A DNA stretch of 64,000 nucleotides from Candidatus Latescibacterota bacterium (GTDB taxonomy: Bacteria; Latescibacterota; UBA2968), in assembly GCA_965205975.1 (NCBI GenBank), contig OZ242195.1, forward strand, positions 2,784,001 to 2,848,000. Reading direction: 5' to 3'. The first letter of the stretch is position 1, and each line of letters begins with the position of its first letter. This document shows, in pieces, positions 18,239 through 40,280 of this stretch. The translations under genes were made by a program, and so were the position numbers. The notes beneath the pieces were generated by a model, which did no database searches, had not been told where the DNA came from, and worked only from the letters and a program-made list of their open reading frames with translations.

Positions 18239-18254
18239 TATGAGGCTCCTTAAA

Positions 18255-21300: not shown

Positions 21301-21351
21301 AACAGATTGCGACCGAACTGAGTTTTTGACGAAAAAGTGCGAAAGATTCAT
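18337..21351 (-). CDS. Peptidase-containing ABC transporter (two cNMP-binding domains, C39 peptidase, TMD, NBD)
   Basis: FYIVESGRL...GDHFGEGAL and FYLLGSGQL...GDYFGDE; QHDQSDCGAACL, HFVVLY, IADP; GRSGAGKT, LSGGQRQR, DEAT. Confidence 0.93.
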   Translation of the reverse strand: MNLSHFFVKNSVRSQSVRFPFGSVVFQQEQAGEAFYIVESGRLRVIKQDENGNSTTVGYLYAGDHFGEGALLNRQGHRATVRAVEDADVLRVPKDEFFKAMRKSSDVKAYLEEQVSCIAYRDFTRFLKGDVPDEAMRVLFARLKRDAVEEGVTIVDQGQFGQRFYLLGSGQLEAVLESGDTVILRPGDYFGDENLSGDKRVIRSRRDSVLFYIDKSDFNKLKAMMPGFDEALERGRISRGKEGSRGELRSVSEPPVVRSITQKDTESHTASNVVNIRIDGAKPQVPTLLHFPFLKQHDQSDCGAACLGMICKYYKMPIGLNRLRDMSNVSRYGTSMAALAEAAETIGFVTRGVRTGYEALMRTELPAILHWEGNHFVVLYQMNKKEVKIADPSVGIRKLSRAEFEKGWTNMALLLEYTDQVAENEPSQSSFKRFFPLIKPYTGILIEVLLASLVLSLFGLASPIFMQTIVDQVLVHHDEDLLNLMLVGMVVVALFQMGTSTLRVYLIGYVSARLSIAMLSRFYRHLLALSMQFFALRRTGDLTTRFRENATIQRLLTGTTVSAVLDFIMLFVYLGLMFYYNAELTLVMLVFVPLSVGLTLIYTPILKSFSQRAFLARAEQSSVLIDSLHGIDVVKAEAVEHTTRWHWEGKFTKEIQIGFQRLKMQMLFGGIGSVINLLSSTVILWYGASLVIEGNLSVGQLMAFNALIGNVMGPIMGLIGIWPQVQEARIALDRLNDVYDTQMEDARQQGQGLILKHLEGRVVFDEVFFRYGVGSDEPYVLNNIDLILEPSQKVAIVGRSGAGKTTLVKLVPRLFDPSEGRVTLDGMDMRDLDPHWLRRQVGMVMQEPFLFSGTIAENIAIGQTDADMDRILEVAKLSCVHDFVSDMPLGYETKVGEQGVGLSGGQRQRIAIARALYNDPKILIFDEATNALDTDSEQAIQANLDLFLDDRTALIIAHRLSTVRDADAIVVLDKGHIVEMGTHDELMVQQGLYYHMCSQQLQVV

Positions 21352-21354
21352 TTT

Positions 21355-22242
21355 TTAGTCCATTGTATGGATGGGCACATATCCATCTCTATTATTGCCT
21401 GCCAGAGTTCCTTCGGGTTCAACTCCCGCCTCAAGGTGATCTGTTTCTTCGCGCTTCGCCACCTGATAAAACCACCTCAACCCAATCACGGCTAATAGTA
21501 CGGCACACACATCTACCCACCACGGCAGAAAGATCAAAGCCTCTGGATTTTCCGCAAAGCCAAGTATTTCCGACCGTGCCAATATAACGGCCAAAAAATT
21601 GTTCAACGCGTGTCCCAAAAGACAGGGCAACAAAGACCCCGTCTGAATGATCCACCAGGCGAATACAAGTCCCAATATCAAAGCCACGGGAAATTGCCAA
21701 GGGCTCAGGTGATATATAGCAAACAAAATTGCCGACCAAATAGCAGCCTGATACTTTGACCAATACGCCAACAAACCACCCAAAATAATACCTCTAAAAA
21801 ACACCTCTTCTGTGAAGGGTGCTTGAATCACCGCTACATAAAAAGCGAGTAAATAAGAGGACTCTTTACCAACTAACTCGCGAGACGCATTCTGCAAAAT
21901 CTCGGGCATTGGAATCACATACAATACCCCTTTGCCTAATTCCAGAGAGACAATAAACAACCCGGGAATAGATATCACAAGTGGAAGTAGTAATTGCCAT
22001 GAAATGGCTTTTATGGGCATAATATCAGCCCACGACGACCATGTTCGATCGGTTCGACGCAAAACATAGTTTACGACCAAAATAAAACTCGCCAAGGTCA
22101 AGAGCCAGATCACATAAGGACTTTCATGGAATGGCTGGTCAATAATCACTCCTATTATCGCAATCGGTACCATCAAACCTGCGCTAATCAGGAACAACAA
22201 TACCAGCAGCCAAATCGATTGCTTCAGATTGGGATACGTCAT
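21355..22242 (-). CDS. CPBP/Abi intramembrane metalloprotease (possible immunity or processing)
   Basis: APFTEEVFFRG, FAIYH, GHALNN. Confidence 0.9.
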   Translation of the reverse strand: MTYPNLKQSIWLLVLLFLISAGLMVPIAIIGVIIDQPFHESPYVIWLLTLASFILVVNYVLRRTDRTWSSWADIMPIKAISWQLLLPLVISIPGLFIVSLELGKGVLYVIPMPEILQNASRELVGKESSYLLAFYVAVIQAPFTEEVFFRGIILGGLLAYWSKYQAAIWSAILFAIYHLSPWQFPVALILGLVFAWWIIQTGSLLPCLLGHALNNFLAVILARSEILGFAENPEALIFLPWWVDVCAVLLAVIGLRWFYQVAKREETDHLEAGVEPEGTLAGNNRDGYVPIHTMD

Positions 22243-22296
22243 TTCTTCTCCTTGTCGATAAATTTAAATCACCTGCTCATAAATCTGTCTACCTAT

Positions 22297-22575
22297 CTAT
22301 TCCTCTTGTTTGCTACCATTAGATCCAGAGAACTTTGCCATTACTCTATCTGCCCAATCCCAATACCATTTTGCATGTTTGAATGATAAGACTGCCAAGC
22401 CTCCCATCAAACCACCATTTATGGCAGACATCATATTAGAGCTCAATCCTGGAAAGAAAAAATGTTTAAGAGTTACCATCAATGCTGAGAAAAATACCCC
22501 CAAACAGAGTGCCAAAAGAACAAAACCAAAAATGCGACCTTTCCAAGGACCGCCAAGAAGATATGCGGGTTTCAT
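22297..22575 (-). CDS. Small membrane protein, candidate immunity protein
   Basis: GGAGG RBS; two hydrophobic helices; directly downstream of the bacteriocin-like precursor. Confidence 0.6.
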   Translation of the reverse strand: MKPAYLLGGPWKGRIFGFVLLALCLGVFFSALMVTLKHFFFPGLSSNMMSAINGGLMGGLAVLSFKHAKWYWDWADRVMAKFSGSNGSKQEE

Positions 22576-22675
22576 TAAAACCTCCATTTTTATTTAGAGT
22601 CTTTCCTTGTGATGAACACCGAGCAGACACGCTTAGAAGGCTCTAGGCTCAAAAACATCAAATTATAGAAAGCAC

Positions 22676-22733
22676 TAACCAATGGTGCGTGTTTAGAGAC
22701 TGAAAACCTTTTAAAAACTCGCACCATTGGTTA
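22676..22733. other. Long stem-loop after the precursor genes (terminator or mRNA stabiliser)
   Basis: Perfect 14-bp inverted repeat TAACCAATGGTGCG / CGCACCATTGGTTA. Confidence 0.65.
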
Positions 22734-22746
22734 CTTAACAGCAATC

Positions 22747-23115
22747 CTAATTACAACTACAGGTGCATCCTTGCGGATCGGAATCTTCTGACGTAATTTC
22801 GCTCAAAATATAACCTGCAGCACCACTTACAACACCACTTACATAACCAATTCCCGCCCCTAAGGCAGCACCTGGAAGAGCACCTATACCACCAGCCATA
22901 GCACCAGTGGTTGCACCTGTAGCAGCACCAGATATAGTACCAACAACAGCAGCTGTCTGTACAGCTTCATTAAATTCATCCCAATCCCATAAACCATCAA
23001 TACCCGCCATTTCATCAACATTGAGCGTTGTTTGCTGGACGGGCAGTGCTGCGCAAGAAGCAAAAACGGCATCTGAATCTGACTTTACACGATTGTTCAA
23101 AGCGATAACGGACAT
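22747..23115 (-). CDS. Class II bacteriocin-like precursor P4 (double-glycine-type leader, Gly/Ala-rich core, CxCxC tail)
   Basis: LNVDEMAGIDG leader; GAATGATTGAMAGGIGALPGAALGAGIG core; ends QGCTCSCN. Confidence 0.75.
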   Translation of the reverse strand: MSVIALNNRVKSDSDAVFASCAALPVQQTTLNVDEMAGIDGLWDWDEFNEAVQTAAVVGTISGAATGATTGAMAGGIGALPGAALGAGIGYVSGVVSGAAGYILSEITSEDSDPQGCTCSCN

Positions 23116-23236
23116 AATATTCTCCAAAAGTAATAAATGGTAAGGCTCATCAAGCCAGTACCTGAGTAACAGAAATTTGAAATTTACAACAAACGACCAA
23201 TATGTTCACCTGGCCAAATACTTACCGGACCCTGAA

Positions 23237-23464
23237 CTACATTGGCCAGGGAAAAGGGTTAAAGATATCTTCCAAATAATCTTCCAAAATATCGTCCAGT
23301 GTTGGGTCAAAATCCTCACTGGTATCATCTTCTGGGACCGGAAAACATCCATCAGCACCAGAGAGCCGAGCAATTTCAAGCCTATTCAAATCGCTCGTTT
23401 TAATCGGCAGATTGGTCACACCTGCGACCGATTGCTCGGGATTTGATACAATTCGTCTCGTCAT
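23237..23464 (-). CDS. RiPP precursor P3 (acidic core, single Cys)
   Basis: AAGGAGGTGA RBS; leader ...LNRLEIARLSGA; core DGCFPVPEDDTSEDFDPTLDDILEDYLEDIFNPFPWPM. Confidence 0.75.
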   Translation of the reverse strand: MTRRIVSNPEQSVAGVTNLPIKTSDLNRLEIARLSGADGCFPVPEDDTSEDFDPTLDDILEDYLEDIFNPFPWPM

Positions 23465-23917
23465 TCCTCTCACCTCCTTTCTCCATAGCCTCAGCGCAAG
23501 CTACATCCCCGTGGCGCCGATCAGGGAGCTGTAAGCATATCGCTGATGGTATCGGATTCTGTAAAGGGTTTTATGGGGTGTGGCGCAATACTACCAGGAA
23601 CCCCACCATTCACTCACCGCATCTCCAATATCATCAATAATATCTTCAATAAGTGGATCGTGCTCAGACAGATCTTCCCCTGGCAAAATGCACCCACCTA
23701 ATGTATTCGCCATCTCACCACGCACCAGTTCGATTTCTTGACCAGGAAGTTGAACACAGGTAGCAGAAACTTGTTCTGGCATTGATGTAATGCGTTCAGT
23801 CATTTCTTTCACCTCCTTTCTCCATAGCCTCAGCGCAACAGCGTCTCCTGCACCTGTACATCGATCAGGGAGCCGTGAGCATATCGCTGAAGTGTCGAAT
23901 TTTGCGAAGCGTCTTAT
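23462..23917. repeat. Tandem duplication unit (GT 3' end, RBS region and precursor start)
   Basis: Identical 30-mer at 23470-23499 and 23809-23838; diverged copy of the GT 3' end at 23518-23574 versus 23862-23917. Confidence 0.85.
23591..23803 (-). CDS. RiPP precursor P2 (acidic core, predicted N-terminal Cys)
   Basis: AAGGAGGTGA RBS; leader ...LVRGEMANTLGG; core CILPGEDLSEHDPLIEDIIDDIGDAVSEWWGSW. Confidence 0.78.
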   Translation of the reverse strand: MTERITSMPEQVSATCVQLPGQEIELVRGEMANTLGGCILPGEDLSEHDPLIEDIIDDIGDAVSEWWGSW

Positions 23918-25268
23918 AAGCTCTATCGCGCGTCTCGCATAAGCCTATCAGAGCAGCTTCGACTTCGTTTGGGTGTAAATGTTGCATCAAATGAAGGCCC
24001 AAGCCTTCAATAAGGGACATATCTTGCCCAAAAAACGAAATGCGAGGCAACGGACCTTGCGCGCTTCCCAAATAGTTAAATCCTTTGGACACACTTTTCG
24101 GCACACCGGACATATCACACCCCTGTGTAAAACTCACGGTTATTGGTATCGGGCAGGCAGGTACATCGCGTTTGGTCCGCAGACTTTCAAACAGTGCCAT
24201 GTGCTGCTGTGCCGTATGATCCCAGGAAAATTCTAGTGCGCGTTTGCGAGCAGACTCACCCATTTCTACACGCTCCGTCTTGCTATCCAAAAAATCGCGC
24301 ACAGCATCTGAAATCACTTCTGGGGCGATATACCCCGTCACATTCAATGGCTCGTCTTCAAATCGCTCAATCTCGATCAACCGCCCACAACTGCCCAACA
24401 ACTCTGGCGCACCCGCAAAATTTGTCGCCACAACCGGAAGACCACACGCCATGCCCTCTATCACAGTGGAGGGACACGACTCATACGAATACACCGACAG
24501 CGCGCACAATACATCCAGCATATTGTAATACAGCGGCATATCCGTATAGGGTTGCGCGCCCAGAAAGATCACATTGGGCGGATGCGTCACGGGTGCGAAC
24601 TGCTTGCCAATCACCGCAAACAGCACATTGGGATTCAGATCGGCCATCCGCAAAAACGGATACGCACCCTTGCCCGGCTCAAACCGCCCGCAAAAACCCA
24701 CGACAGGCATCTCTAAAAAACGTTGATCACCCGTCTTATTCGCGACCTCCTTTCGCGCTTGCAACTTATCCATCGGCACAAACACCTCGGCATCTACCCC
24801 ATTGGTAATCGCATGCAAATACGATCTGTCAAACACCATCTTGCCCACTTCGTCAGCGACATACGCCGACTTGGGCGACAGGGCATCATAAGGCCGCAAC
24901 AGCGAATAACATTGAAGCACCTTATCTATAAAATCCCGATTGCGTCCAAAAGAACACGACAGCCGAATCACAATGGGTGCGGGACACACATGGCGAAAAA
25001 ATGCCAGGTCATCTACTTTGGGCTCAAACATCAGCACCCCATCAAAATCCTGCCGCGCAAACCACTGGCGAGACGCATCAATCGTCTCAAACTCAGGTCG
25101 AATACCGTGCAAATTCGGACCATAATCCACCGCTTCAGACGCTGGCATATACACATTGCAATACTTCGATAACGCCTGCACATGGTTAAAACCCGAAAGG
25201 GACGCCCCGCTATTCGACGCCATCACTTTTTCATGATCGTGATACGGATGTGACACATAAATTTTCAT
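23865..25268 (-). CDS. GT4 family glycosyltransferase with C-terminal extension
   Basis: NGVD, GRFEPGKG, ESCPSTVIEGMACGLPVV, FSW. Confidence 0.9.
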   Translation of the reverse strand: MKIYVSHPYHDHEKVMASNSGASLSGFNHVQALSKYCNVYMPASEAVDYGPNLHGIRPEFETIDASRQWFARQDFDGVLMFEPKVDDLAFFRHVCPAPIVIRLSCSFGRNRDFIDKVLQCYSLLRPYDALSPKSAYVADEVGKMVFDRSYLHAITNGVDAEVFVPMDKLQARKEVANKTGDQRFLEMPVVGFCGRFEPGKGAYPFLRMADLNPNVLFAVIGKQFAPVTHPPNVIFLGAQPYTDMPLYYNMLDVLCALSVYSYESCPSTVIEGMACGLPVVATNFAGAPELLGSCGRLIEIERFEDEPLNVTGYIAPEVISDAVRDFLDSKTERVEMGESARKRALEFSWDHTAQQHMALFESLRTKRDVPACPIPITVSFTQGCDMSGVPKSVSKGFNYLGSAQGPLPRISFFGQDMSLIEGLGLHLMQHLHPNEVEAALIGLCETRDRAYKTLRKIRHFSDMLTAP

Positions 25269-25286
25269 CTTTCACCTCATTAGGAA

Positions 25287-25383
25287 TCGGCTTTCAGCCA
25301 TCAGCTTTCAGTTCCCCGCCCAGACACCCAAAGGTAATAGCTTGCTTGTTTTGCTAACTGCTAACCACTGAACGCTGACTGCT
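25287..25383. repeat. Inverted arrays of heptamer repeats between the GT genes
   Basis: TCGGCTT TCAGCCA TCAGCTT TCAGTT ... GCTAACT GCTAACC ACTGAAC GCTGACT. Confidence 0.45.
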
Positions 25384-27943
25384 GCTCTATGAACTTTTGC
25401 GTTTGCTCGGCACCATCCAGGGATAGATGATGTTCGGACACAGAACTTTCGAGCATTTCGGCTATAGCTTTTGCCATCTTTTCCGCACTGAGTTGATCCG
25501 GATGTACCACCCCGGCAATGCCCAACCACATCAACTCCTGCGCGCGAAATTCCTGATCATCCATCGCAATGCTCGGCACCAGAATTGATGGGACCTGTGT
25601 CTCGAGCACATTCATACACGTATTGTAGCCCGCCCGGCTAATCGACAAATCCGCGTGTTTCATCCACGCCAAAAAATTGGACGTAAAGCGCTCAATGCGA
25701 AACGGACCATCACCGCACAACCCGCGCAAAGCCTCAAAATGCTTTTCATCTATAAACGCACCAGCAAAAATCACCATCTCGCGTCCATCGTGCGCATCGT
25801 CCCGCTCCAATTGTTTCCACGCTTCAATACACGGCGCAACAAGCGCAAGCCCCTCAGCCCCGCCGCCAGCACTGACCAACACATACCGATCAGGCGCACG
25901 ATCAGGCCGAGATGCGTCCTCGAGTTTCTCAGAGACAAACCCCGTATAAACCACGGGAATACCGATATCAGCAGTCCAGGGAAAGTGATCTTCCAACCGG
26001 GATAGTTGGGAATCGCCATGCACCAATACCGCATCGAAATACTGATTCAACACGGGCACGACCTCCTCGTAATACCGCCGATTAAAAGCCACATACTCGT
26101 GATGTATCCCGCCAAAAGGCACCGAATAAAACCGCATCGCATCTCCATCGCGTCTCTGGACAAGCGCGACAGTCGGTTGCAACACATTGCTTTTTGCCCG
26201 CGTTGGAATATCGCGCAGAGAACACAGCACTTTCGCGCCGGGATTGACCTCATTGAGTCTGACTATTGTATTGAGGATTTCGCTCTTAAGCGACCATCGG
26301 GAAAAAGGGAAAAACTCAATACAAAACACATCGGGGCGAATCTGTTCCATCGCTTCGGAAAGCCTGACCTGGCGCTCGCGCATCACAGCCTGCAAATCGC
26401 GCTCCTTATCAACAGACTCAATGCCCTGTGCGCCCGAGCGAAGGGGCGGCAGGGAAATACGCGTCACCCGTTCATCGAGATCGGCTTCGGGAACAGGGCG
26501 CCCGCCATCGATGAAAAAAACATCGCATGTCTTGACTAACGCATTGACAATCTGTCGATTGCGAAAATGGTGTCCCACGCCGATAAGATGCTGGCTGTAA
26601 AAAGCAACGCGCGTGCGTCTGGTTTTGGCCGCTGATAATGGTTCTACACGTGAACTTTCCGCCTGGACGAGACAAACGGATGAACCGCTCTGACACTTGT
26701 ACACCGCTTGCGCAGATTCATATATCCCGCGATAGCCTTCCACAACCCGCGTCCATGTACGCTCTGACCGCACCCATTCACTACTCTTTTTCCCCAATTG
26801 CATCCGCAGTGAGGGATTCTCGATAAGTTCGGCACATGTTTGGGTAAGACTCTCGACATTATCTGCCGCAAAAACGCGCCCGGTTTCGCCATCTGTAACC
26901 ACCTCCGTAAGTGCGGCTACATCACTCACAACAACGGCTTTTTTCATCGCCATTGCCTCATAAGGCTTCATCGGCGTAACCAGTTCGGTAACGCGGCTAC
27001 GCGTGCGGGGAATAACAAAAACATCTAACATCGCGTAATAGGCAGAAACCTGGTCGTGTGGTATTTCACCCGTAAAAATCACTATATCCGAAAGACCGCG
27101 TTCAAGTGCCTCGCGTTGCAACGCCGGCAAATCTCGTCCACCACCCACAATCAACACTTTGAGATTGGCATACTGCGTGCGAAGAACCTCACACGCCTGC
27201 AACAACAACCGTAATCCCTCCAGCGACCGCACCAGACCGATATAACCTAACACCACATCGCTCAATTCAATACCTATGCGATTGGCAAGTTCACCTGACT
27301 TATTTTTGGGGGCATATTGCTCTATTGCTACCCCATTGGGCACCACGCCAATTTTCTCTTCGTCAACACCTTCGCGTATGCACTCGGCTTTTAATACCTC
27401 GGACAACGTCACTACTGCATCGGCTTGTCGCATCGCATTGACATGTTGCTCGTGCTGCTGGCGATACGCCTCTGAAGCGGGAACCAGCATCCCTTGCGCC
27501 ACACCGCTATCGTGCCACAACCCCCGCACCTCGTACACCACAGGCAGACCATAGTGATGCCCTATATCAATCGCAACCTGCGCGTTTCTACCCGGCGAAG
27601 CGGCGTGCAACACATCGGGTTTTTCCATTTCTATTGCCCGCGCAACACGCTTGCGAAAGTGTTGCTCCTGTCCCGCGTGATAGATTCGCGGAGTATCTGG
27701 TAATTGAAATTTGCCCAGGCGTTCTGATAGACGTGTGGTGTATTTTTCAGAAGTATTTCTCAAATAAGGCACTTCATTGATATATTCGACACCATCAGCG
27801 AGTTGTTCAGACACACCCCACCGCGTGAGCACCACAGGATCGAAGCCGAGTACTTTCTGCGTGTTGATGATATACTGGCTTCGCAAACTGTATCCGCTTT
27901 GTCGGTGTGGCAGCGAAATATCCAGAATATGTAGAATTTTCAT
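25361..27943 (-). CDS. Bifunctional glycosyltransferase: GT4 domain plus GT28-C-terminal-like GT-B domain
   Basis: HILDISLP..SGYSLR, YEVRGLW, PMKPYEAMA; second domain YSQHLIGVGH, SAGGG, ISRAGYNT. Confidence 0.88.
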   Translation of the reverse strand: MKILHILDISLPHRQSGYSLRSQYIINTQKVLGFDPVVLTRWGVSEQLADGVEYINEVPYLRNTSEKYTTRLSERLGKFQLPDTPRIYHAGQEQHFRKRVARAIEMEKPDVLHAASPGRNAQVAIDIGHHYGLPVVYEVRGLWHDSGVAQGMLVPASEAYRQQHEQHVNAMRQADAVVTLSEVLKAECIREGVDEEKIGVVPNGVAIEQYAPKNKSGELANRIGIELSDVVLGYIGLVRSLEGLRLLLQACEVLRTQYANLKVLIVGGGRDLPALQREALERGLSDIVIFTGEIPHDQVSAYYAMLDVFVIPRTRSRVTELVTPMKPYEAMAMKKAVVVSDVAALTEVVTDGETGRVFAADNVESLTQTCAELIENPSLRMQLGKKSSEWVRSERTWTRVVEGYRGIYESAQAVYKCQSGSSVCLVQAESSRVEPLSAAKTRRTRVAFYSQHLIGVGHHFRNRQIVNALVKTCDVFFIDGGRPVPEADLDERVTRISLPPLRSGAQGIESVDKERDLQAVMRERQVRLSEAMEQIRPDVFCIEFFPFSRWSLKSEILNTIVRLNEVNPGAKVLCSLRDIPTRAKSNVLQPTVALVQRRDGDAMRFYSVPFGGIHHEYVAFNRRYYEEVVPVLNQYFDAVLVHGDSQLSRLEDHFPWTADIGIPVVYTGFVSEKLEDASRPDRAPDRYVLVSAGGGAEGLALVAPCIEAWKQLERDDAHDGREMVIFAGAFIDEKHFEALRGLCGDGPFRIERFTSNFLAWMKHADLSISRAGYNTCMNVLETQVPSILVPSIAMDDQEFRAQELMWLGIAGVVHPDQLSAEKMAKAIAEMLESSVSEHHLSLDGAEQTQKFIEQQSAFSG

Positions 27944-27993
27944 CGCTCGATTCTCCAAGGATCGTAGGCATACAAGGGGTTCATCATCTACAA

Positions 27994-28926
27994 TTAGAAT
28001 TTTCTACTCGCCCATTTGTTATACGAAAACAGCGAGTTTCTAAAAAACATATTGACGATTGTCATATAACAGGCATTCTGTTTTCTATTTAGGGCGTCTG
28101 GTAGGAGCGTAGAATTTCGATCTACTAACTCCTGGATGTGCTCAGGCGTCACGCCATAGATATTGCGAAGGGTATTGAACAGACCAATCAAATCTGTTTC
28201 ACAGCAGTTATTCGCTTTAGCCAGTGCTCTCAAATACACATCACCGATATGCGATAATGCCTTTGCTATTCGGGAGCGGGTTTCACTGACAGACTGAACA
28301 TCCGAAAGTCTGGAGGGCGCATCCCAACATGGTGTCACGGACCTGATCTTACGCAACACCGCCAGATGGTGATCTTCGCGGATCATTTCCACTTTAAAAC
28401 TACCGGAATAGACGGACAGCCAGTTCTCGACTATTTGCTTCTCATAAGACCTTCTGAAATCATCCAGAATGACCAGACCACCAATCTTGATCTGATCATA
28501 AACCTGGTAGAGACATGCCTCCCGACCTCGCAAGGTATAGACAGGCGGACCATCAATAATCACGCAATCCATCTCTTCCTCCCAAAACACCCCATCTTCA
28601 TAAGTCAAAAATTCCGCATCTCCATAAGATTCAAGTGTAACCGGACGATATTTGATCGATAGATTGCGCTTATCCCAGAATGATCTCATCAGACTCGTGG
28701 TCTCTGCAAAATTCCGCCAATCGCCTTCTATAGACAGAACCTCGGCTTCCGAAAACGCCATTGCCAGACGGATAGAACTCGGACCACTTCCAAATTCGAG
28801 AATTCTTTCTACTGGAGACATCTGACGAAGTAAAGTTTCTATTTTCTCAAACGCTGTCTCACCAATGCTCCAACCTGTGTTCAGATTAAGCTGTTCCGAC
28901 ATTTTGAGGTCTGAAATTTTATGCAT
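27994..28926 (-). CDS. Class I SAM-dependent methyltransferase
   Basis: ILEFGSGPSS, VIIDGPP, GGLVILDD. Confidence 0.82.
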   Translation of the reverse strand: MHKISDLKMSEQLNLNTGWSIGETAFEKIETLLRQMSPVERILEFGSGPSSIRLAMAFSEAEVLSIEGDWRNFAETTSLMRSFWDKRNLSIKYRPVTLESYGDAEFLTYEDGVFWEEEMDCVIIDGPPVYTLRGREACLYQVYDQIKIGGLVILDDFRRSYEKQIVENWLSVYSGSFKVEMIREDHHLAVLRKIRSVTPCWDAPSRLSDVQSVSETRSRIAKALSHIGDVYLRALAKANNCCETDLIGLFNTLRNIYGVTPEHIQELVDRNSTLLPDALNRKQNACYMTIVNMFFRNSLFSYNKWASRKF

Positions 28927-28942: not shown

Positions 28943-29176
28943 CTAATAGCCATCATGTGCAAATACATACACATACCAGGAAGCCTGTTCTGGCCCTACC
29001 CCATTAGGGGGAGCATCACAATCCCAAATTTCAGCGAGTCGCGTCTTTTCCTGCTGGGCTTCCCGCTTAGAATTATAATGTCCCACAATCCTCCAATTTC
29101 TGAAGGAGCGATACCTGGATCGCCAATATCGCTTTCGCTCGTCAGGGTTCATAGTAATTCCAACTCGACAGGCCAT
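28943..29176 (-). CDS. Small basic hypothetical protein, GIY-YIG-like
   Basis: MACRVGITMNPDERK...SKREAQQEK...WYVY; GGGGAG RBS. Confidence 0.55.
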   Translation of the reverse strand: MACRVGITMNPDERKRYWRSRYRSFRNWRIVGHYNSKREAQQEKTRLAEIWDCDAPPNGVGPEQASWYVYVFAHDGY

Positions 29177-29350
29177 ATTCACTCCCCATGGTTTATGAGG
29201 TCACTTCCAAATCATAACGTCGCTGTAACAAAGACGCTTCTGCTTCTATAATTTCCATTCAAAGCCCAAAGCCTCGGTTCTTCTCGAACAGATTTAGTGG
29301 ATGATTCGCTTAAGAACAGGAGGCCTTGGGCTTTCAAAAGTTTGCGATTC

Positions 29351-30781
29351 CTATGATGCCACTTCCAGATCATATCGCCGCTGCAACAAAGACGCATCCG
29401 TCTCTGCAATCTCCATACATATCTCCATCGCCAGTTCATAGCGATAGCGCGTCTGTTCACAAGCAACAGGATTGGGATACATCGGATCACCCGTCGTCGT
29501 CCGCGCCTCCCAAAGACACCCGCCACCACACAAATTGCGCGCCCAGCACGTCTTGCACTCAGGCCGATTATTGACATTGAACTGCGCGTCAAAATGCTGC
29601 TGTTTTTCGCGATCAATACCCGCGAACACATCACCCATCTTAAACTCGGGCGCATCGGCCAAACTCGAACAAAAATAAATCGACCCATCCGCTGCAATCG
29701 CCAAATACTGCTTACCTCCCAGACACCCGTGACAGGATTTTTGGCGCGTCAAAAGTTTTTGAATCCTCGGATCAAACTCTTCACACTCTTCACCATTTAG
29801 AATAGCTTTGAGCGCACGTCGGCTCCGCCTGTAAATTTGCTGCTTCAAAACAGGTATGTGTTCTTCCCCAATAGCATAAGGCGCATCCGGTGAAACAACA
29901 GCCGAGCTAACAAGTGCGTTTTCAGTACCCAGAGAACGCAACGCATCGGCAATCTGATCCTCATCCATATCATACGCTGTCATAACAGCCTGCAGGTACA
30001 CGCGCTCAGGCACCTCATCAGTCAGTTTCTCCACATTCTTTGCCACAACATCATAAGTGCCAGAACCATTGTGAAACTTGCGAATGCGATCCTGTGTCTT
30101 ACGCCCCCCATCCAGGCTGACCTTAATCTGAAACTTTTCATCAACCAAAAACTGCTTCATCTCTTCGGTCAACAGCGTGCCATTGGTCACAATGCCAAAA
30201 CCAACCTGCACACCCAACCGCGCGCCCAGGGATTTGGCAAACGGGACAAGCTCCTGCATCAATGGAAAATTCAGGAGTGGCTCCCCGCCAAAAAAATCAA
30301 TCTGGCACCGTCCGAACACCTGGGCCTCAGTAACAATCCAGCGTATCGCCTGCTCTGCAACGTCTGGTTGCATCAGCATCGCCTTACCGCCGTAATCTCC
30401 ACCGTGGGCAAAGCAATAAGCACATTGGATATTGCACGAATGCGAAACGTGCAACGACACCTGCAAACGATCTGTCTGCGAAACCCCACAGGCAGCCACC
30501 CCTTCTGTTGTCGGCACATGGGATACCACAGGTAGTGCACCATCCGAAATCAAACCCACCTGAGCCAATTCCTCAATAGCCTCGACAATCTCCTCTGCCT
30601 CGTATTGATCGGCTAACTTCTGAACAACTTGTGAAGCCGACAACCCCTCACAACACTCTAAAACCGACAGGAAAAGAGTATCCAATTGAAAAAACAGACC
30701 CGTCTCTACCTGATAGACAATTGGCTGTTTTTGTTCTTCAGTTTGAAAAAGATGCATGTCGCATTTCTGAATGGATAGCAT
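29351..30781 (-). CDS. Radical SAM/SPASM peptide maturase with N-terminal RRE (CteB/PapB-like architecture)
   Basis: CNIQCAYC, FFGGEPLLN, SLDG; SPASM GC...YFC...CKTCWARNLCGGGC-x18-C; PqqD-like N-terminus. Confidence 0.92.
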   Translation of the reverse strand: MLSIQKCDMHLFQTEEQKQPIVYQVETGLFFQLDTLFLSVLECCEGLSASQVVQKLADQYEAEEIVEAIEELAQVGLISDGALPVVSHVPTTEGVAACGVSQTDRLQVSLHVSHSCNIQCAYCFAHGGDYGGKAMLMQPDVAEQAIRWIVTEAQVFGRCQIDFFGGEPLLNFPLMQELVPFAKSLGARLGVQVGFGIVTNGTLLTEEMKQFLVDEKFQIKVSLDGGRKTQDRIRKFHNGSGTYDVVAKNVEKLTDEVPERVYLQAVMTAYDMDEDQIADALRSLGTENALVSSAVVSPDAPYAIGEEHIPVLKQQIYRRSRRALKAILNGEECEEFDPRIQKLLTRQKSCHGCLGGKQYLAIAADGSIYFCSSLADAPEFKMGDVFAGIDREKQQHFDAQFNVNNRPECKTCWARNLCGGGCLWEARTTTGDPMYPNPVACEQTRYRYELAMEICMEIAETDASLLQRRYDLEVAS

Positions 30782-30807
30782 ACGAGGTACTCCTCAGAAC
30801 AAAGATG

Positions 30808-30987
30808 TCACTCGGCGTGATCAAAATCGTCCCAATCGTCATCGTCATTGGGAAAGGGCAAGGGAGGAACAGCAATAGGAGTCGGAGAACAGCCATATTC
30901 AAAACTATCCGTCGTCTCATATGTGTGAATACCTCCCTCTTTATCCATTGTTCCATTAATCAAGGTCAACTTGTGCCGAGTCGTCAT
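30808..30987 (-). CDS. RiPP precursor P1 (ranthipeptide-type leader, single Cys, Pro/Asp-rich core)
   Basis: AAGGAGG RBS; MTTRHKLTLING...EYGCSPTPIAVPPLPFPNDDDDWDDFDHAE; immediately upstream of the rSAM gene. Confidence 0.78.
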   Translation of the reverse strand: MTTRHKLTLINGTMDKEGGIHTYETTDSFEYGCSPTPIAVPPLPFPNDDDDWDDFDHAE

Positions 30988-31077: not shown

Positions 31078-31109
31078 AAAAAAAAGCACTTGACGACACT
31101 CAAGTGCTT
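31078..31109 (-). terminator. Intrinsic terminator after the activator gene
   Basis: AAGCACTTGA-6 nt-TCAAGTGCTT followed by a T-run on the minus strand. Confidence 0.65.
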
Positions 31110-31299: not shown

Positions 31300-34200
31300 C
31301 TATCTCAACCCCAAACGATTCATCTTTCTATACAAGCTGGCGCGCACCAACCCCAGTTCTTCGGCCGTACGCTTAATATTACCCTCGTATTTTTCGAGCG
31401 CATCCATAATCAACCGTTTCTCATACTCCTGCATACGATCTTGTAAACGCCCTCCTACTTGCGTGTGGGCATCCGTCCGTGCAGGCAAGTGATATTCGAC
31501 AGAGACGCCCGACACCGCGTGCCCGATAGATTCTGAAAACAAATCGGGCGTAATATCACCTTCTTCTTCTGCCAATGCAACCGCACGCCGAATCTCATTC
31601 TCCAACTCGCGCACATTGCCCGGCCATTTGTAACTTGTAAGTGCCCTGATTGCACCTACTGTCAGCCCTCCAATCGGCTTGTTTACATTTTCTTTTATCC
31701 GGATAAGTAGATGTTCGGCCAGTAACGGCACATCTTCCATGCGTTCTCGCAAAGGCGGCATATCAATCTGAATCACATGCAACCGGTAATACAAATCCTC
31801 GCGGAAAGAACCTTCTTCAACTTCTTTTTTTAAGTCTCGATTGGTCGCTGCAATAATGCGTACATCCACTGCCCGATCCTCTGTTTCCCCCACCCGCCGG
31901 ATCTCGCCTTCTTGCAACACCCGCAACAAACTCCTTTGCAACTGTGGCGGGGCATCGCCGATTTCATCGAGAAAAACCGTACCCCTATTGGCTTCCTCAA
32001 AAACCCCTTTATGATCTTCAGTCGCTCCAGTAAACGCCCCTTTTTTATGCCCAAACAACTCGCTCTGCAACAACTCTGGTGATAGTGCGGCACAATTTTG
32101 TGACAAAAACCGCTGGTCTTTGCGTGTACTATTGTAGTGTATAGCACCCGCTGCCAATTCTTTGCCCGTACCTGTTTCGCCCTGCACAAGCACGGGAATA
32201 TCGCTCTTTGCAGCACTTTCTATAAGATAGTAGATCGCCTGCATCGCATCACTTTGCCCAAACAGATCGCCAAGCTGGTGCCGTCTTTCGACCTGTTGCT
32301 GCAAATATTGTGCTCTCTCTTCCAATTGTTCGTACATCCTCGCATTGACCAGTGCTACACCCACCAGATTCGCAAATACCTGCAAAAACGTCTGATCTTC
32401 TTCAGAAAATACGTTGCCCAAGCCGCGATGATCTACATATAGCGCACCGATAACACCTTCTTTAACATGAAATAAGGGCACGCACAATACAGACCGAATA
32501 TTGTAGTCTATCACACTCTGATATTGATTGAGCCTATCGTCTGTCTGTGCATCAATGCTCAAAACGAGTTCATTTGTCTCAATAACGCGGTAAATAATAC
32601 CCCTACTCAGCACGTCTGCATCATCTACTTCTACATTGTGGTAGCGCACAGCATCGACCTCAAAGCCTTTTTGGGTCTCATTTTTAATCGCAACAATCAC
32701 CCGCTCTGCTGGATAGACAGTTAACAAATTGCCCAGAGTCCGGTCCAATAGCACTTTGACATCGCGCTCGGTTGTCAATTCGTGGCTCACATCGTAAAGC
32801 AAGCGCAAACGATCAACAGACAGCGTATCGACTGAAATCTCAGAACTGGATACGGATCCACGAGAGGATTCATCCAATTGATCTAATAACACCTGTGTTT
32901 TCTCCAGAAAATAGGACATTTGCATTTCTTCAAACGCCTGTTTTGCCGCTTTGAGATGTGCTTGTGCTTTTGGTATATCATCGCGCTCAAGATAAAACTC
33001 CCCAGCCATCAGCAATGCACGCGCCCAGTGATCGCCTTTGGATTCTATTCGGCATTCAATCGCCTGCTCAAAAGCCTCTTCAGCCTCAACAATTCGCCCT
33101 ACTTTAGACAAAGCAACACCAATACCACAATACACCAGAGGCAATATGCCCGTGAACATACCCGATGTTTGTTGCGTACCTTCGCTGGCTCTTTCTGCCC
33201 ATTCAAGAGCTACTTCTGTATCGCCCATTCTTGCAGCAGCCGTTGCCGCTATTGCATAAGCGCGATAGACATAATCTCTTCGTGGTGTGTCCAAATAACG
33301 TTGTGATGAAATCTCTGCATATTCCAATGCCTCGGCAAAATCCCTGCGTTCCAGTGCCAATTCACTAAGCCATAGGAAATTGGCTGCTTCCAAGTATATA
33401 ACCCCTCGCTTCTGCCACTCTCCAATTGCTTCATTGCAAACCGCTTCCGCAAGATCGCATTCACCCAAATAAAAATAAACTCTTGCGAGTAAATTGAGTG
33501 TCCCTATGCGATGGTGTTCAAATCCAACTTGTTGAGATGTCCTTAAGACTTCTTCCAAATGTACTCTCGCTATCTCAAATCGAAATTCGATTAAGGCGAG
33601 TTGTCCTTCAGACTTTTGAACGTCAGTCTGATTATGCGCGTCAGCATTACGCTTCTGTTGTTTTTTGATATATTGACGGACATAATCAGCAGCATCCTTG
33701 TGCCTTTCTGACACATCGCACAAGTAAGACAAGCTACTTAATGCCTGAATTTCGCCGTCGAAATCACCCAATTCACGGTAAAGCCGCAATGCCTCCAACA
33801 TATATTCTTCTGCTATTTTTCCATGTTGAAGTACGCTGTGAATACTACCTGTATAATTCAAAATACGCGCTTTCAAATCTTTCCGATCAGCGGGCAATAA
33901 TGCCTTTGCTTCCTCTAAAAGTTTCAGTGCTTTATCGTGCTGGCTGCAATTGCGCAACACATCTGTATAATCGCACAAAAAGTCAATAGCATCTGCTGGT
34001 GATTCAAAAGCGTCATCTGCTGTCCAGTCTCGCACAGCCTCAAATCGTCTCAATGCCCGCCGATACGCTTGTCCCTCCAATGCTTTTTTGCCTGCCAAGC
34101 GTGCATATTTAACAGCTTTATCTTGTTCTCCTGCCACGGCAAAATGATCCGCCAATTCTTCTGTCAATTCTTCTGCATCTTCCAACTCTTCCAGGGCATT

Positions 34201-36117
34201 GCCAATTTCTCGATGCAACAAACGCCGCCGCACATCTTGCAGGCGGTCATAAATTGCCCGCCGATACAAACCCTGTGAAAAACGATATTGATCTTCACCC
34301 TCCTCACAAGGAACCAAAAACCCTTCTGCAATCAAGTCGTCCAGCACATCCAGCAGTTCTAACTCATCACCGCGCCAAACCTCAGCCAATAATTCAAAAG
34401 AAAAATCACTCAGAAAAACACAGGCGTATTCCAGTACCCGCTGTTGTACAGCAGACAGAGTAGCCACGCGCTTGTACAAAACCTCTGAAAAATCATCGAA
34501 TAATAATCTTTCGGGAATTTCTCCCCACTGCCAATCGCCAGACACATTCTGCCGAACCACATCGGTATTCACCAGCGTCCTCACAGCCTCCACGACAAAC
34601 AGGGGCTGCCCATCCGTTTCTCTGAACAAAGTTTGTAATGCATCCGGCGGTATGGATCGCTCCCCCAACATCGACGCCGCTAAATACCCTACCTCTTCTT
34701 GTGATAGATTATTCAACTGAATATGAGTCGTCTCAGCAAATTCATTGCTGTGTATAAATTTTTCAACTTCCTCTGAAAGCGGTTCCAGATTAGACCATCG
34801 GCAAGTCAGACATAACAAAAACGGGCACGGTTCTGGATCGCGCAACACATACTGCAAAAATTCCAGAGTCAATTCATCAAGCCATTGAATATCTTCCAGA
34901 CACAACACAATGGGCTGCTTCTGCCGCAGACGTTTAAGCACCTGCAACCAGTGCTCCATAACAGAAAACTTATCCGTCTCCCCCATCAAATCCGCCGTCT
35001 CTTGAAAAGCATCAATCAACGCAGCGTATATTTGTCCGCCCTCTTCCCGCCCTGCGCCCTTCAAACATAGAAAATCGTGGATCAGAGCGTCGGCCAGCAA
35101 TTCTTCGGCCAGTCTCGATTTGCCTACTCCCGCCTCACCCGAGATCAGAACCACACGCTGCTTGCCAGCCTGTACATCCTGCAACATCGCACTCAGTATC
35201 TTCATTTCAGATTCCCGCCCGACAAATTGCGGGCGCACAACTTTTCTATGCACATCGCGAAGCTCATCACTCGGCAGCACAAACTCCGATGGTAAGGCAC
35301 CAACCAGTTCCTCTGCCGACTGATAACGATCAACACGTTCCTTTGCCAGCAACCTCAGCACAATTTGTTGCGTCTCTTCGGGAACAGCGATATGGACTTC
35401 GCCCATCGGAGGCGGTGACTCTCGAATATGCTTCATAATAACAGATATTGGGTTTTGTCCAGAAAAGGGTGGTGCGCCCATGAGCATCTCGTATAAAATT
35501 ATGCCCAATGAGTACAAATCTGATCGATGATCCACCCAGAGACCCTTACCCTGCTCTGGCGACATATATTCTACCGTACCCATCGTCGCGCCCGTCTGCG
35601 TCATGGAGACTCTATGCAGATGTTTGATTTTCGCCAGCCCCAGATCCAAAATCGTGGTCTCAATCCCCTCTTTTGTCTCCAAAACCATAATATTGGATGG
35701 CTTGAGATCGCGATGCACTGCGTCCTGAGCGTGGATATATGCCAATCCCTCGGCAATTTGTTGTATCAAGTCAAAAAAGTGAGAAGTCCGAAATTGTCCT
35801 AACATTGCACGATCGGCAATTATCTTTTCCAAAGTCTTTCCAGGCAAATATTCCATTGTAAAATACGGACGTTCTTCGGCAAAGCCCCAGACATACGTGC
35901 GTACCAGACGCGGATGCTGAAGTCTGCTCAACACCTGAAATTCTCTGTGAAAACGGCGACGCACAGCCTGCTCATCCATCATTTCATTCAAAATTTTGAG
36001 TGCGCACTCCTGGCCTTGATTCAGGTCCAACACCCGATAGACTTCGCCCATGCCCCCGGTTCCCAGATGCGCCTGGATTTGGTATTTGTTGTCGAGAATT
36101 GTTCCGTTTTCAAACAT
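31300..36117 (-). CDS. Multidomain regulator: Ser/Thr kinase, STAND-type ATPase, TPR, GAF, sigma54 AAA+ and Fis-type HTH
   Basis: GTGGMGEVY, HRDLKPSN, GTVEYMSPEQ; FVGRESE, GEAGVGKS, LEDIQW; RSVLCVPL; GETGTGKE, GAFTGA, FLDEI, WPGNVREL; TAEELGLVRASLYRKM. Confidence 0.93.
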   Translation of the reverse strand: MFENGTILDNKYQIQAHLGTGGMGEVYRVLDLNQGQECALKILNEMMDEQAVRRRFHREFQVLSRLQHPRLVRTYVWGFAEERPYFTMEYLPGKTLEKIIADRAMLGQFRTSHFFDLIQQIAEGLAYIHAQDAVHRDLKPSNIMVLETKEGIETTILDLGLAKIKHLHRVSMTQTGATMGTVEYMSPEQGKGLWVDHRSDLYSLGIILYEMLMGAPPFSGQNPISVIMKHIRESPPPMGEVHIAVPEETQQIVLRLLAKERVDRYQSAEELVGALPSEFVLPSDELRDVHRKVVRPQFVGRESEMKILSAMLQDVQAGKQRVVLISGEAGVGKSRLAEELLADALIHDFLCLKGAGREEGGQIYAALIDAFQETADLMGETDKFSVMEHWLQVLKRLRQKQPIVLCLEDIQWLDELTLEFLQYVLRDPEPCPFLLCLTCRWSNLEPLSEEVEKFIHSNEFAETTHIQLNNLSQEEVGYLAASMLGERSIPPDALQTLFRETDGQPLFVVEAVRTLVNTDVVRQNVSGDWQWGEIPERLLFDDFSEVLYKRVATLSAVQQRVLEYACVFLSDFSFELLAEVWRGDELELLDVLDDLIAEGFLVPCEEGEDQYRFSQGLYRRAIYDRLQDVRRRLLHREIGNALEELEDAEELTEELADHFAVAGEQDKAVKYARLAGKKALEGQAYRRALRRFEAVRDWTADDAFESPADAIDFLCDYTDVLRNCSQHDKALKLLEEAKALLPADRKDLKARILNYTGSIHSVLQHGKIAEEYMLEALRLYRELGDFDGEIQALSSLSYLCDVSERHKDAADYVRQYIKKQQKRNADAHNQTDVQKSEGQLALIEFRFEIARVHLEEVLRTSQQVGFEHHRIGTLNLLARVYFYLGECDLAEAVCNEAIGEWQKRGVIYLEAANFLWLSELALERRDFAEALEYAEISSQRYLDTPRRDYVYRAYAIAATAAARMGDTEVALEWAERASEGTQQTSGMFTGILPLVYCGIGVALSKVGRIVEAEEAFEQAIECRIESKGDHWARALLMAGEFYLERDDIPKAQAHLKAAKQAFEEMQMSYFLEKTQVLLDQLDESSRGSVSSSEISVDTLSVDRLRLLYDVSHELTTERDVKVLLDRTLGNLLTVYPAERVIVAIKNETQKGFEVDAVRYHNVEVDDADVLSRGIIYRVIETNELVLSIDAQTDDRLNQYQSVIDYNIRSVLCVPLFHVKEGVIGALYVDHRGLGNVFSEEDQTFLQVFANLVGVALVNARMYEQLEERAQYLQQQVERRHQLGDLFGQSDAMQAIYYLIESAAKSDIPVLVQGETGTGKELAAGAIHYNSTRKDQRFLSQNCAALSPELLQSELFGHKKGAFTGATEDHKGVFEEANRGTVFLDEIGDAPPQLQRSLLRVLQEGEIRRVGETEDRAVDVRIIAATNRDLKKEVEEGSFREDLYYRLHVIQIDMPPLRERMEDVPLLAEHLLIRIKENVNKPIGGLTVGAIRALTSYKWPGNVRELENEIRRAVALAEEEGDITPDLFSESIGHAVSGVSVEYHLPARTDAHTQVGGRLQDRMQEYEKRLIMDALEKYEGNIKRTAEELGLVRASLYRKMNRLGLR

Positions 36118-36231: not shown

Positions 36232-36487
36232 GATCACTGGGTACGCGTTTTTCTACGCGCGAAGGCATCCAGTTCATGCCGGACGGTTGAACTACTGGCG
36301 TAGTTGTACCCCGCTCGACCGGACAGTTCGGCATAGCGCTGCGTGGTCTGCAAGTTGCGATGACCGAGTAGCCAGCGCACTGTGCCAACACCCACGCCAC
36401 TGTTCACCAGCTCCGTCGCGACCGTGTGCCGAAGTTGGTGGATCTGGCATTTGACCTCTGCCTGATCACACAGCTTTGTCCATTGAT
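36232..36487 (-). pseudogene. Duplicated 3' fragment of the recombinase at 39318-40268
   Basis: Colinear, diverged copy of 39316-39571 (QWTKL...HQLRH...LGHRNLQTTQRY...stop). Confidence 0.85.
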
Positions 36488-36511
36488 AATACGCGCTTCC
36501 ATCCGCATTTC

Positions 36512-38059
36512 TCACGCACCTGCCACCTCAAAGGCCGTTATGTTGCGAGTATCCTTGCTGAACTCTACCCCGATCAGATGGATCGGCCGATCCAGACCCC
36601 GATATTTGTCCGCGTATCCCTTCTCCTGCAACTGCGCCATCGCCGCTCCCTCAGACGCCAGTTCCACCACCTTGAACTCGAACAGGTAGATGTTATCGTT
36701 GAAGTGAACAGCCATATCCACACGCCCATGACTGCTGCTGTCTTCTACCGTAATATTGAGACCCAAGCCCGCGAAATAGGAATAGAACACGCTGGCATAG
36801 TAGCCTTCAAATTTGGCGATGTCGTTGTTGGTGTACCACTCATAAGGGATACTGGCAAAAAAGGCGTGGAATAAGGTCTCCATGCTGGCGAAGTCGTTGG
36901 CTTCGAGCAGGCGGTAGAGTTGCACGCTGTTCGCCATCTGCTCAGACGGGTCTTTTACCAGGTAGTCCAACAGGCTCTCGTTGAGGCTCTGGCGCACCTC
37001 ACGGTTGGGATAGCCCAGCCAGTAAAGGGACTTGCCGCCGAGGTTCTCCTCACTGGTAATGGTCAAGTACCCGGTCTGAAACAACAGAGCCTCAGTCGCG
37101 ATTTCATCCACATCAAAGGTCGATAGCAGGTCGTTACTGCCCATCATCTCATCGAGTTTCAGAGAACTGACACGGCGTTTGAACAGGGTTTCGATGAGGA
37201 ACGTGGGCGTGCCGGTCTCGAACCAGTAGGCTCCGAACTCGCGGCTGTCGAAGAGCAGGAGAATATCGAAGGGGTTATAGACCTTCTCCTCGCCTCGCCA
37301 GCTATAGCCATTGTACCAGTCGCGGATCTTCCCTCGATCCAAGCCGGGAAGCTCGGGCGCGAACACCGTGTCCAAATCCGCATCGGTATAGCCGCAAACA
37401 GCCGAGTAGCGCGTATCCAATGTGATATCCTTCAGATTGTTGAGGCCAGAGAACAGACTCACCTTGGAGAACTTGCTGACGCCTGTGAGGAATGTGAATT
37501 TGATATGGGCATCGCTGTCCTTGATGGTCGCGTAGAGACCGCGCAGAAAATCGCGGTTGTCGCGTGCAACCTCCGGTACATCCAAAGCATCAAGTATCGG
37601 CTTGTCGTATTCGTCAATGAGAACAGCCACGCGCTGCCCACCCTGCCGATGCAATACCCGAATCAGATCACTAAAGCACTCCGGTGTCGTATCGTAACGC
37701 GGCGCAATACCGGCTTCTTCCGCTATGGTGTGTAGTTGCGCCATCACATTCGCATGCAGGTAGCCCTCGTCTTTGAAATTGCCCCTGCCAAAGCTCAAAC
37801 GCACAACGGGATAGCGAACAGACCAGTCCCAGTGGTCGTGGATGTGAAGCTCTTCGAACAGCGGTTCATTGCCCTCGAACAGTTCCTTTAGCGTATCCAG
37901 AAATAGACTTTTGCCAAACCGACGTGGACGTGATAAAAAATAGTGCTTGCCCTGGTCGAGCAGCCTCCGAATATAGGCGGTCTTATCCACATAGTAGCAG
38001 TTATCCTCTCGCATCTCGCGAAAGGTCTGAATACCGATGGGCAGTCTGCGTTTGGTCAT
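36512..38059 (-). CDS. AAA-ATPase-like protein with C-terminal PD-(D/E)XK nuclease domain
   Basis: LPIGIQTF, YYVDKT, SRPRRFGKS, IDEYD, WFETGTP, GRVD...FEFK. Confidence 0.9.
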   Translation of the reverse strand: MTKRRLPIGIQTFREMREDNCYYVDKTAYIRRLLDQGKHYFLSRPRRFGKSLFLDTLKELFEGNEPLFEELHIHDHWDWSVRYPVVRLSFGRGNFKDEGYLHANVMAQLHTIAEEAGIAPRYDTTPECFSDLIRVLHRQGGQRVAVLIDEYDKPILDALDVPEVARDNRDFLRGLYATIKDSDAHIKFTFLTGVSKFSKVSLFSGLNNLKDITLDTRYSAVCGYTDADLDTVFAPELPGLDRGKIRDWYNGYSWRGEEKVYNPFDILLLFDSREFGAYWFETGTPTFLIETLFKRRVSSLKLDEMMGSNDLLSTFDVDEIATEALLFQTGYLTITSEENLGGKSLYWLGYPNREVRQSLNESLLDYLVKDPSEQMANSVQLYRLLEANDFASMETLFHAFFASIPYEWYTNNDIAKFEGYYASVFYSYFAGLGLNITVEDSSSHGRVDMAVHFNDNIYLFEFKVVELASEGAAMAQLQEKGYADKYRGLDRPIHLIGVEFSKDTRNITAFEVAGA

Positions 38060-38123
38060 ATTATGCACCTTTGTCTTTACATCTCATCCAAAAGCGATTC
38101 TGTTATTTTTTGTTCTTTGGCAT

Positions 38124-39236: not shown

Positions 39237-39317
39237 GGTGGGGTTCCTTCACTTTGCAGGCATTTCGGCCTATCTGTACATCTACAAAGCGTTGTCATGC
39301 TTCGCGTCCATTCACGA

Positions 39318-40268: not shown

Positions 40269-40280
40269 GTTTCCCCTTTT

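Follow-up and report, generated by a model that had tools for sequence, protein, structure and literature searches.

A conserved Latescibacterota cassette of a sigma-54 regulator, a single-cysteine precursor peptide and a CteB-like radical SAM maturase

To our knowledge, characterised ranthipeptide enzymes mostly use Cys-rich cores or acidic or Thr acceptors. For CteB, the closest solved relative of the enzyme studied here, the accessible text of the reports describes seven SPASM cysteines, three on Aux I and four on Aux II, with Aux I left open for the thiol of the substrate (PMC10177961), and a product in which Cys32 of the precursor CteA, the sulfur donor, is linked in vivo to Thr34 by a gamma-thioether (PMC8172795). 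Excerpts of further reports add that a His-Arg pair of PapB was modelled as the holder of the acceptor carboxylate (PMC10739248), that CrpC places thioethers in motifs without an acidic residue, CPLV and CAGM among them (PMC13692751), and that a GYW motif defines the cyclopropyl synthases TvgB and TigE (PMC10878394). Six positions in the proximity of the catalytic site have been defined, which read F,F,T,S,H,Q in CteB, and single-Cys thioether precursors were omitted from the published scoring module for lack of examples (PMC10288494, in part). A link between SCIFF peptides and quorum sensing has been drawn (PMC8102284), and antiSMASH 'ranthipeptide' clusters of unassigned function are on record for sponge Latescibacterota (PMC12993501), again according to the accessible parts of these sources.

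In this work, we analyse a 64,000-nucleotide stretch of a Candidatus Latescibacterota genome (the window), in which an earlier note had proposed a ranthipeptide-type maturase acting on a core with a single Cys. Literature listings and the openings of abstracts, with subscription papers and bioRxiv supplements out of reach, hold no description of this cassette family, and the accessible part of the PMC10288494 supplement holds no match to it.

Layout of the cassette and its surroundings

All features of the cassette lie on the minus strand. An RRE-radical SAM-SPASM maturase of 476 aa (29351..30781) is preceded, across a gap of 26 nt, by a gene with a strong ribosome-binding site for the 59-aa precursor peptide P1 (30808..30987), and further upstream stands a regulator of 1605 aa (31300..36117) that joins a Ser/Thr kinase, a STAND ATPase, TPR repeats, a GAF domain, a sigma-54 activator domain and an HTH. 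Pattern matches place a sigma-54 (-24/-12) promoter box 5' of P1 (31047..31061) and a terminator-like hairpin between regulator and promoter (31084..31109), the latter from a search that found 5 hairpins against 3.3 in shuffles. The strict sigma-54 pattern recurs at 18 of 30 close loci, where shuffles predict 0.01, and the box of the remaining 12, read by eye, deviates at its first base. A P1 homologue lies upstream of the enzyme in 33 of 34 close loci (the fragment L030 was omitted, and L027 is cut with its core visible), as does the regulator in 30 of 32, the other two being cut by contig ends; it is also present at distant loci. This genome holds three regulator-P1-enzyme cassettes. Regulator, sigma-54 promoter, P1 and enzyme form a conserved Latescibacterota cassette, and no protease or exporter is conserved beside it in the neighbourhoods of the enzyme loci.

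Downstream of the enzyme, the window holds an ORF of 77-79 aa, a gene resembling methyltransferases, two glycosyltransferases of the GT4 type, the peptides P2, P3 and P4 (the last a glycine-zipper peptide), a CAAX protease and an exporter of the peptidase-type ABC kind with HlyD. The small ORF (28943-29182), which also directly follows the enzyme in 10 of 32 close loci, has no Pfam or NCBIfam match; we take it to resemble a small GIY-YIG-type protein. The class I methyltransferase-like gene (27994..28926, minus strand) is a frequent but optional passenger, matched in 16 of 32 close loci (two as fragments only) and absent from five of six genus genomes that lack the enzyme; it usually adjoins the enzyme and also occurs away from it. 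It matches Methyltransf_24-like clusters, with a family share of 16-42% in the top three, and may act as an optional tailoring enzyme.

At two loci (L013:7535-8001 and L019:2480-2949) about 260 additional bases, similar in both, separate precursor and enzyme, and a small acidic Cys-rich ORF with a signal-like start lies downstream of a distant enzyme copy (L038:2850-3113). Genes labelled by eye as mobile-looking, namely a helix-turn-helix replication-like protein, tyrosine recombinases and AAA-ATPase/nuclease-like and DUF1016-like genes, occur on both sides of the region (6196-12276 and 36234-40355).

P2 (23591..23812) and P3 (23237..23473), both on the minus strand, are double-glycine precursors and not part of the cassette; they belong to a separate glycosyltransferase/peptidase-ABC module. 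This genus-wide module occupies 15000-27958 (core 16080-27958, minus strand) and comprises a GT4/GT28 fusion, a GT4 with a 100-residue C-terminal extension, P2, P3, P4, the CAAX protease, a cNMP/C39 ABC exporter, HlyD and a PPIase-like gene. The C-terminal end of the 467-aa glycosyltransferase, considered as a possible RRE-like domain, has no Atlas match. The module is possibly a glycosylated-peptide system that employs GT4 enzymes, in which the P2 core would begin with Cys, and the epimerase, dehydrogenase and UDP-GlcNAc 2-epimerase genes (labelled by eye) that lie below the exporter in the same strand run (12605-16234) could supply the glycosyltransferases.

The maturase and its precursor

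The enzyme carries the RRE (Pfam PqqD, E 0.003) and the SPASM cysteines that the earlier note had called CteB-like, and a CX3CX2C motif. It passes generic Pfam domains only and stays under every NCBIfam family cut-off, with 259 bits against 425 for SCIFF (TIGR03974), 249 against 518.7 for Nif11 (TIGR04064), 249 against 453 for QhpD, 231 against 340 for PapB (NF047865) and 112 against 349 for anSME (TIGR03942). CteB is the closest solved relative by sequence (5WGG, E 3e-59) and by fold (TM 0.71), followed in fold by anSME (TM 0.61), and TigE is a weak match in both. The earlier note would have given up its reading for an enzyme that grouped with the sulfatase maturases; with 112 bits for anSME against 259 for SCIFF, and CteB as the best structure, it does not group there. 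It falls within the RRE-rSAM-SPASM group of QhpD, CteB and PapB, and there it belongs to a clade of its own, outside every curated family. Among the 120 homologues listed, a group of 62 at 38-93% identity is followed by a drop to 28-33%, and the 14 clade members sampled for a tree form one branch (SH-aLRT 99) against 20 sampled weaker matches, of which 17 have retained PCHQ or PCHR. Members of the clade turned up in 25 of 168 Latescibacterota genomes, and in 14 of 20 within the genus; its named records are nearly all from Latescibacterota, with one Gemmatimonadota and one Poribacteria label.

C116, C120 and C123 form the SAM cluster motif, and alignment to CteB (PMC10177961, seen in part) assigns C353, C371 and C422 to Aux I and C409, C412, C418 and C441 to Aux II. 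These seven CteB-type SPASM cysteines are invariant in all 43 clade members. An additional Cys350 near C353, present in 24 of the 43 and in all 33 close copies, could close Aux I. The six pocket residues (F124, F164, V198, S222, S372 and S373) are identical to those of CteB at three positions; the fifth is Ser in 43 of 43 clade members, the sixth Ser, Ala or Thr in as many, and all 33 close enzymes share the same six. Loss of the His-Arg pair in the clade fits a core without Asp or Glu. The pN/pS of the enzyme is 0.14.

Distant cassettes hold a second enzyme paralogue with the RRE and most SPASM cysteines that lacks the CX3CX2C SAM motif (L285:6583-7983, L286:6141-7637, L287:10321-11787, L288:196-1569, L289:1099-2511 and L292:9211-10602), usually followed by a GT4 gene; the L291 paralogue is the opposite case, with the SAM motif retained and SPASM cysteines lost. 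These paralogues make up the clade's sister branch.

P1 has the one Cys (C33), the Pro-rich stretch and the Asp/Trp tail described earlier, and contains no CxxxD/E; only 3 of 33 close homologues have Asp or Glu at Cys+4. Neither P1 nor P2 and P3 match an NCBIfam or Pfam family. All 33 close P1 sequences differ from each other, around an invariant K-L-x-L-x-N-G, an invariant Cys and an invariant V-P-x-x-x-F-P. Of the likeness to CteA and PapA that the earlier note had drawn, the leader strand KLxLxNG held throughout, whereas 'YGC' occurs in 1 of 33 homologues; G directly precedes Cys in 20, and a PapA-like AYGCS or 'YGC' was rejected as a family motif and put down to chance.

The leader strand, residues 5-12 (30952..30975), with its invariant K6, L7, L9, N11 and G12, is predicted to bind the RRE, as the earlier note required of P1. 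A co-folding model lays P1 residues 5-14 on RRE residues 28-34 and 64-75 with a score of 0.86 against 0.02 for the best control, a mark that 116 of 157 solved pairs and 2 of 215 mismatched ones attain (contact agreement between runs is 49% or more, and partner pLDDT no lower than 51), and this pass may reflect likeness to the solved CteA-CteB complex (5WGG). The model has no confident contacts for residues 28-59 and says nothing on the acceptor.

Beyond a leader side that is less fixed (21-23 residues from NG to Cys), Cys33 (30889..30891), the putative sulfur donor, is the only invariant reactive residue of the core (33 of 33); seven homologues have a second, unconserved Cys. The distance from Cys to the VP is 7 in 32 of 33 and 6 in one (L029), and V+7, P+8, F+12 and P+13 are invariant in the 32 cores with spacing 7. 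Between them lies a hypervariable six-residue loop (residues 34-39, 30871..30888) with Pro always at +1 or +2; then come the conserved V-P-x-x-P-F-P (30850..30870), which holds Val40 and Pro41, and an acidic tail (30811..30849) that is conserved in the genus and unseen in 10 distant precursors. Cys33 lies 28 residues past H5, and in 57 of 65 SCIFF precursors from fetched loci 29 residues separate the H/R-I/V-K/R start from the Cys equivalent to CteA Cys32. With one conserved Cys in 33 of 33, the P1 homologues lack the six Cys in about 45 residues that characterise SCIFF precursors.

Across 32 P1 sequences, pN/pS is 0.22 in the leader motif, 0.54 in the linker, 0.97 in the loop and 0.16 in the VP..DDD follower. 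P1 is a protein-coding gene under selection with a free loop, and the earlier note's proviso that it be translated agrees with this coding selection. Positive selection on the loop was considered and rejected, its uncorrected pN/pS of 0.97 (0.78-1.08) being neutral or saturated and not above 1. Four RNA-library runs, taken from two studies, hold contigs of relatives that span the enzyme gene and whose loose ends run into P1-like sequence, although these contigs are strandless and could stem from DNA.

Ten distant precursors (one of them split by a frameshift and read by eye) keep the IN/VN motif of the leader and one core Cys and have lost the poly-Asp tail; their +7 residue is V, I, L or F in nine and P in one, and V-P is not fixed beyond the genus. 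Searches with the distant A3 alignment gave 2 clade loci among 80 genome loci, and the 80 metagenome loci all stayed at or below 36% identity; because they returned mostly SCIFF-type loci, distant precursors are under-sampled.

Candidate chemistry at the single cysteine

By analogy with the characterised maturases, Cys33 would probably be joined by one thioether to a downstream residue that is not acidic. In the mechanism we propose, the regulator would switch on P1 and the enzyme, whose RRE would bind the leader strand; Cys33 would ligate the open iron of Aux I, the 5'-deoxyadenosyl radical would abstract a hydrogen from a downstream non-acidic residue, and one thioether ring would form with loss of 2 Da, as deduced from CteB, Tte1186, PapB and CrpC. 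The best-scoring models (SCIFF, Nif11, QhpD and PapB) are all thioether synthases, with anSME far lower, and CrpC provides a precedent for non-acidic motifs (PMC13692751, in part).

The acceptor is most likely Val40 (Cys+7) or Pro41, which carry about half of the thioether reading and are favoured because their distance from Cys is fixed and +7 is hydrophobic family-wide. Either would give one large ring around the freely varying loop, with the bond to the alpha carbon or the side chain. The other half is shared by the CteB-like positions +2 and +5, where Thr is absent in 33 of 33 close cores; +5, where 32 of 32 close cores have Pro or a hydrophobic residue, is a possible acceptor site. VPxxPFP could instead be a protease or binding signal. 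The acidic tail was rejected as acceptor and as family hallmark, since the first D/E past VP stands at +14 or +15 and poly-Asp is missing in the 10 distant precursors; an acceptor upstream of Cys was likewise set aside, as no residue is fixed there and the spacing varies by one, although it would be conceivable for an alpha-thioether. The loop shows no co-variation with the enzyme.

The earlier note had offered a Cys-to-Pro or long-range thioether, or a non-thioether reaction, as atypical chemistry for a ranthipeptide-type maturase. Its long-range thioether is supported in so far as the single-Cys, non-acidic core meets an enzyme modelled best by thioether synthases; its Cys-to-Pro option is weakened, as regards the loop, by a Pro that shifts while the pocket stays constant. 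A short ring from Cys33 to Pro35 (Cys+2) would be a sub-case of thioether formation in the register that CteB uses in vivo, where Cys32 and Thr34 of CteA are linked (PMC8172795, in part), and Pro stands at +2 in 20 of 33 close cores and at +1 or +2 in every one. Yet Pro is at +1 in 14 cores and at +2 only in 19, facing an identical six-residue pocket; Ser, Ala or Val occupies +2 in 13; on an enzyme tree of low resolution (1 of 30 inner branches well supported), the Pro register changes 11 times, where shuffling gives a mean of 10.7, and shows no clustering; and of the distant cores six have Trp at +2 and two no Pro before +7. We hold this ring to be unlikely, and the loop Pro is better read as a turn. 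Rather unlikely, too, is a reaction at Cys33 that makes no thioether, for instance its oxidation to formylglycine in the manner of anSME, in which case Cys350 would occupy Aux I. The sulfatase substrate motif is C-x-P-x-R, which the C-x-P of 20 of 33 cores recalls, and both the extra C350 of the subclade and the rank of anSME as second-best fold (TM 0.61) would suit it; however, the full motif is found in 1 of 33 only, the anSME model scores 112 bits against its cut-off of 349, the enzyme comes with an RRE and a peptide of its own, and 19 of 43 clade members have no C350 in the same cassette layout. Conversion of Val40 into cyclopropylglycine as by TvgB or TigE, with another part for the Cys, would explain an invariant Val40 and the weak sequence and fold match to TigE, but GYW is found in 0 of 43 clade members and the core has no repeated motif, which makes this reading extremely improbable.

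The substrates of the enzyme raise a separate question, since P2 and P3 lie on the same strand about 7 kb downstream, their acidic cores have Cys and then Pro, and the cassette has no conserved protease or exporter, so that the transporter of the P2 module could conceivably be used in trans. The earlier note had seen a G-C-(x)-P acidic core shared by P1, P2 and P3 under two leader types; 'CILPG' in P2 and 'CFPVP' in P3 exist as quoted, but the distance is large, neither peptide has the L[IV]NG motif, and the sharing is a coincidence because in 'GC' the G closes a leader of the double-glycine type. P2, P3 and P4 have a common leader of this type and very variable acidic cores, several of them Cys-free; several P3-type relatives have no Cys at that place, and relatives in G082, G086 and G091 lack it. 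That P2 and P3 are further substrates in one large cluster is very improbable: none of the 28 close enzyme loci that extend 7 kb or more downstream matches the glycosyltransferase, P2 or P3, and of the three glycosyltransferase-P2-exporter modules in this genome two have no enzyme nearby, the module adjoining the cassette in this window only. Across the genus, all 20 other genomes have the 467-aa glycosyltransferase and 14 of the 20 have the enzyme; in those 14, a comparison of coordinates by hand puts the two on separate contigs or no less than 140 kb from each other. Of the 20 genus genomes, 17 hold P2 matches, including four without an enzyme match (G079, G085, G087 and G090), of which G079 and G087, the latter one contig and 97% complete, have GGCILPGE-type peptides and G090 has strong P2 matches.

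The regulator, the loop and known systems

The most variable part of the regulator is a TPR patch at residues 800-900 (33418..33720, minus strand), with a mean identity of 0.69 against 0.82-0.87 in the enzymatic domains (28 of 33 loci, those with more than 90% regulator cover) and a pN/pS of 0.38-0.43. The region folds as a TPR superhelix in the predicted structure, where three helices within 746-860 have the highest mean variability; of the listed fold matches, the top TM scores are those of MalT domain III (0.62) and Rap with pheromone (0.59), although TPR folds match many unrelated proteins. This patch is also the part of the regulator that best tracks the P1 loop. Partial Mantel tests over 31 windows (n=28) gave r 0.31 for the loop (family-wise p 0.001) and r 0.29 for the loop plus two residues (p 0.009); with 10 close-pair sequences dropped (n=18) nothing was significant (p 0.17-0.36). 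At the 21 loci with intact genes r is 0.38, or 0.31 with the 22 closest pairs masked (p 0.001), whereas the GAF domain, sigma-54 domain and enzyme, though nearer to P1, reach 0.07 at most and the kinase 0.07-0.13. Nearest neighbours by TPR patch fall in the same loop class, as defined after inspection of the alignment, in 22 of 28 cases (null 7.4), against 16 of 28 for the C-terminal part. The regulators of the window and of L023, distant elsewhere, are closest at 800-850 and have similar loops; copy B of the same genome, with a similar loop and a different patch, is a counter-example. Five held-out loci all lack the TPR region.

It is possible, if tentative, that the peptide serves as a self-signal for the TPR sensor in the regulator next to it, and we put it no higher because co-inheritance through recombination can give the same pattern. 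As the loop and the sensor seem to vary together, the product might signal in a strain-specific way; more specifically, that an approximately 25-membered ring from Cys33 to the Val40 side chain is an allele-specific ligand of the TPR sensor of its own regulator seems doubtful. Peptide and enzyme are intact beside a regulator lacking residues 657-1169 (L007:4220-7486), one without residues 617-1013 (L021:2713-7475), both without TPR sensor, and the frameshifted one of copy B (G000:C1:3086762-3091598).

If borne out, bonding of one Cys to a hydrophobic residue beyond a variable loop would extend the thioether chemistry of radical SAM enzymes; a macrocyclase that follows the leader, accepts varied loops (more than 30 in nature) and does without an acidic acceptor would be a tool for peptide stapling. 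Sponge-associated Latescibacterota would then have a family of self-recognising signal cassettes, several per genome, and a match of loop and TPR sensor would allow a direct test of signalling in an uncultured sponge symbiont and of radical SAM peptides as ligands of sigma-54 activators.

Among described systems, CteB/CteA (thermocellin), Tte1186/Tte1186a and the SCIFF enzymes of TIGR03974 (structures 5WGG and 5WHY) have the same RRE-rSAM-SPASM layout, the seven SPASM cysteines (to which C350 is added in this enzyme), a leader strand that ends in NG, a donor Cys whose spacing from the leader motif is almost equal, and a compact precursor-enzyme pair. They differ in sequence (about 29-31% identity), in a precursor with six Cys where P1 has one and in a His-Gln that is Ser-Ser/Ala here, and this cassette stands apart through its hypervariable core, sigma-54 control, multiple copies and host phylum. 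PapB/PapA (freyrasin) and QhpD/QhpC are homologous thioether synthases with, as here, the Cys N-terminal to the presumed acceptor, whereas P1 has no CX3D/E and the enzyme has Ser-Ser in place of His-Arg. CrpC/CrpA of Methanococcus voltae (TIGR04463) shares the seven-Cys SPASM and thioether motifs that are not acidic (PMC13692751, in part), but CrpA is a large Cys-rich protein with short rings, and our enzyme scores 77 bits against a TIGR04463 cut-off of 525. RRNPP regulators, including Rgg-SHP with radical SAM RiPPs, and MalT-type STAND sensors likewise set a TPR superhelix next to a small variable peptide; here the putative sensor lies within a kinase-STAND-GAF-sigma-54 activator.
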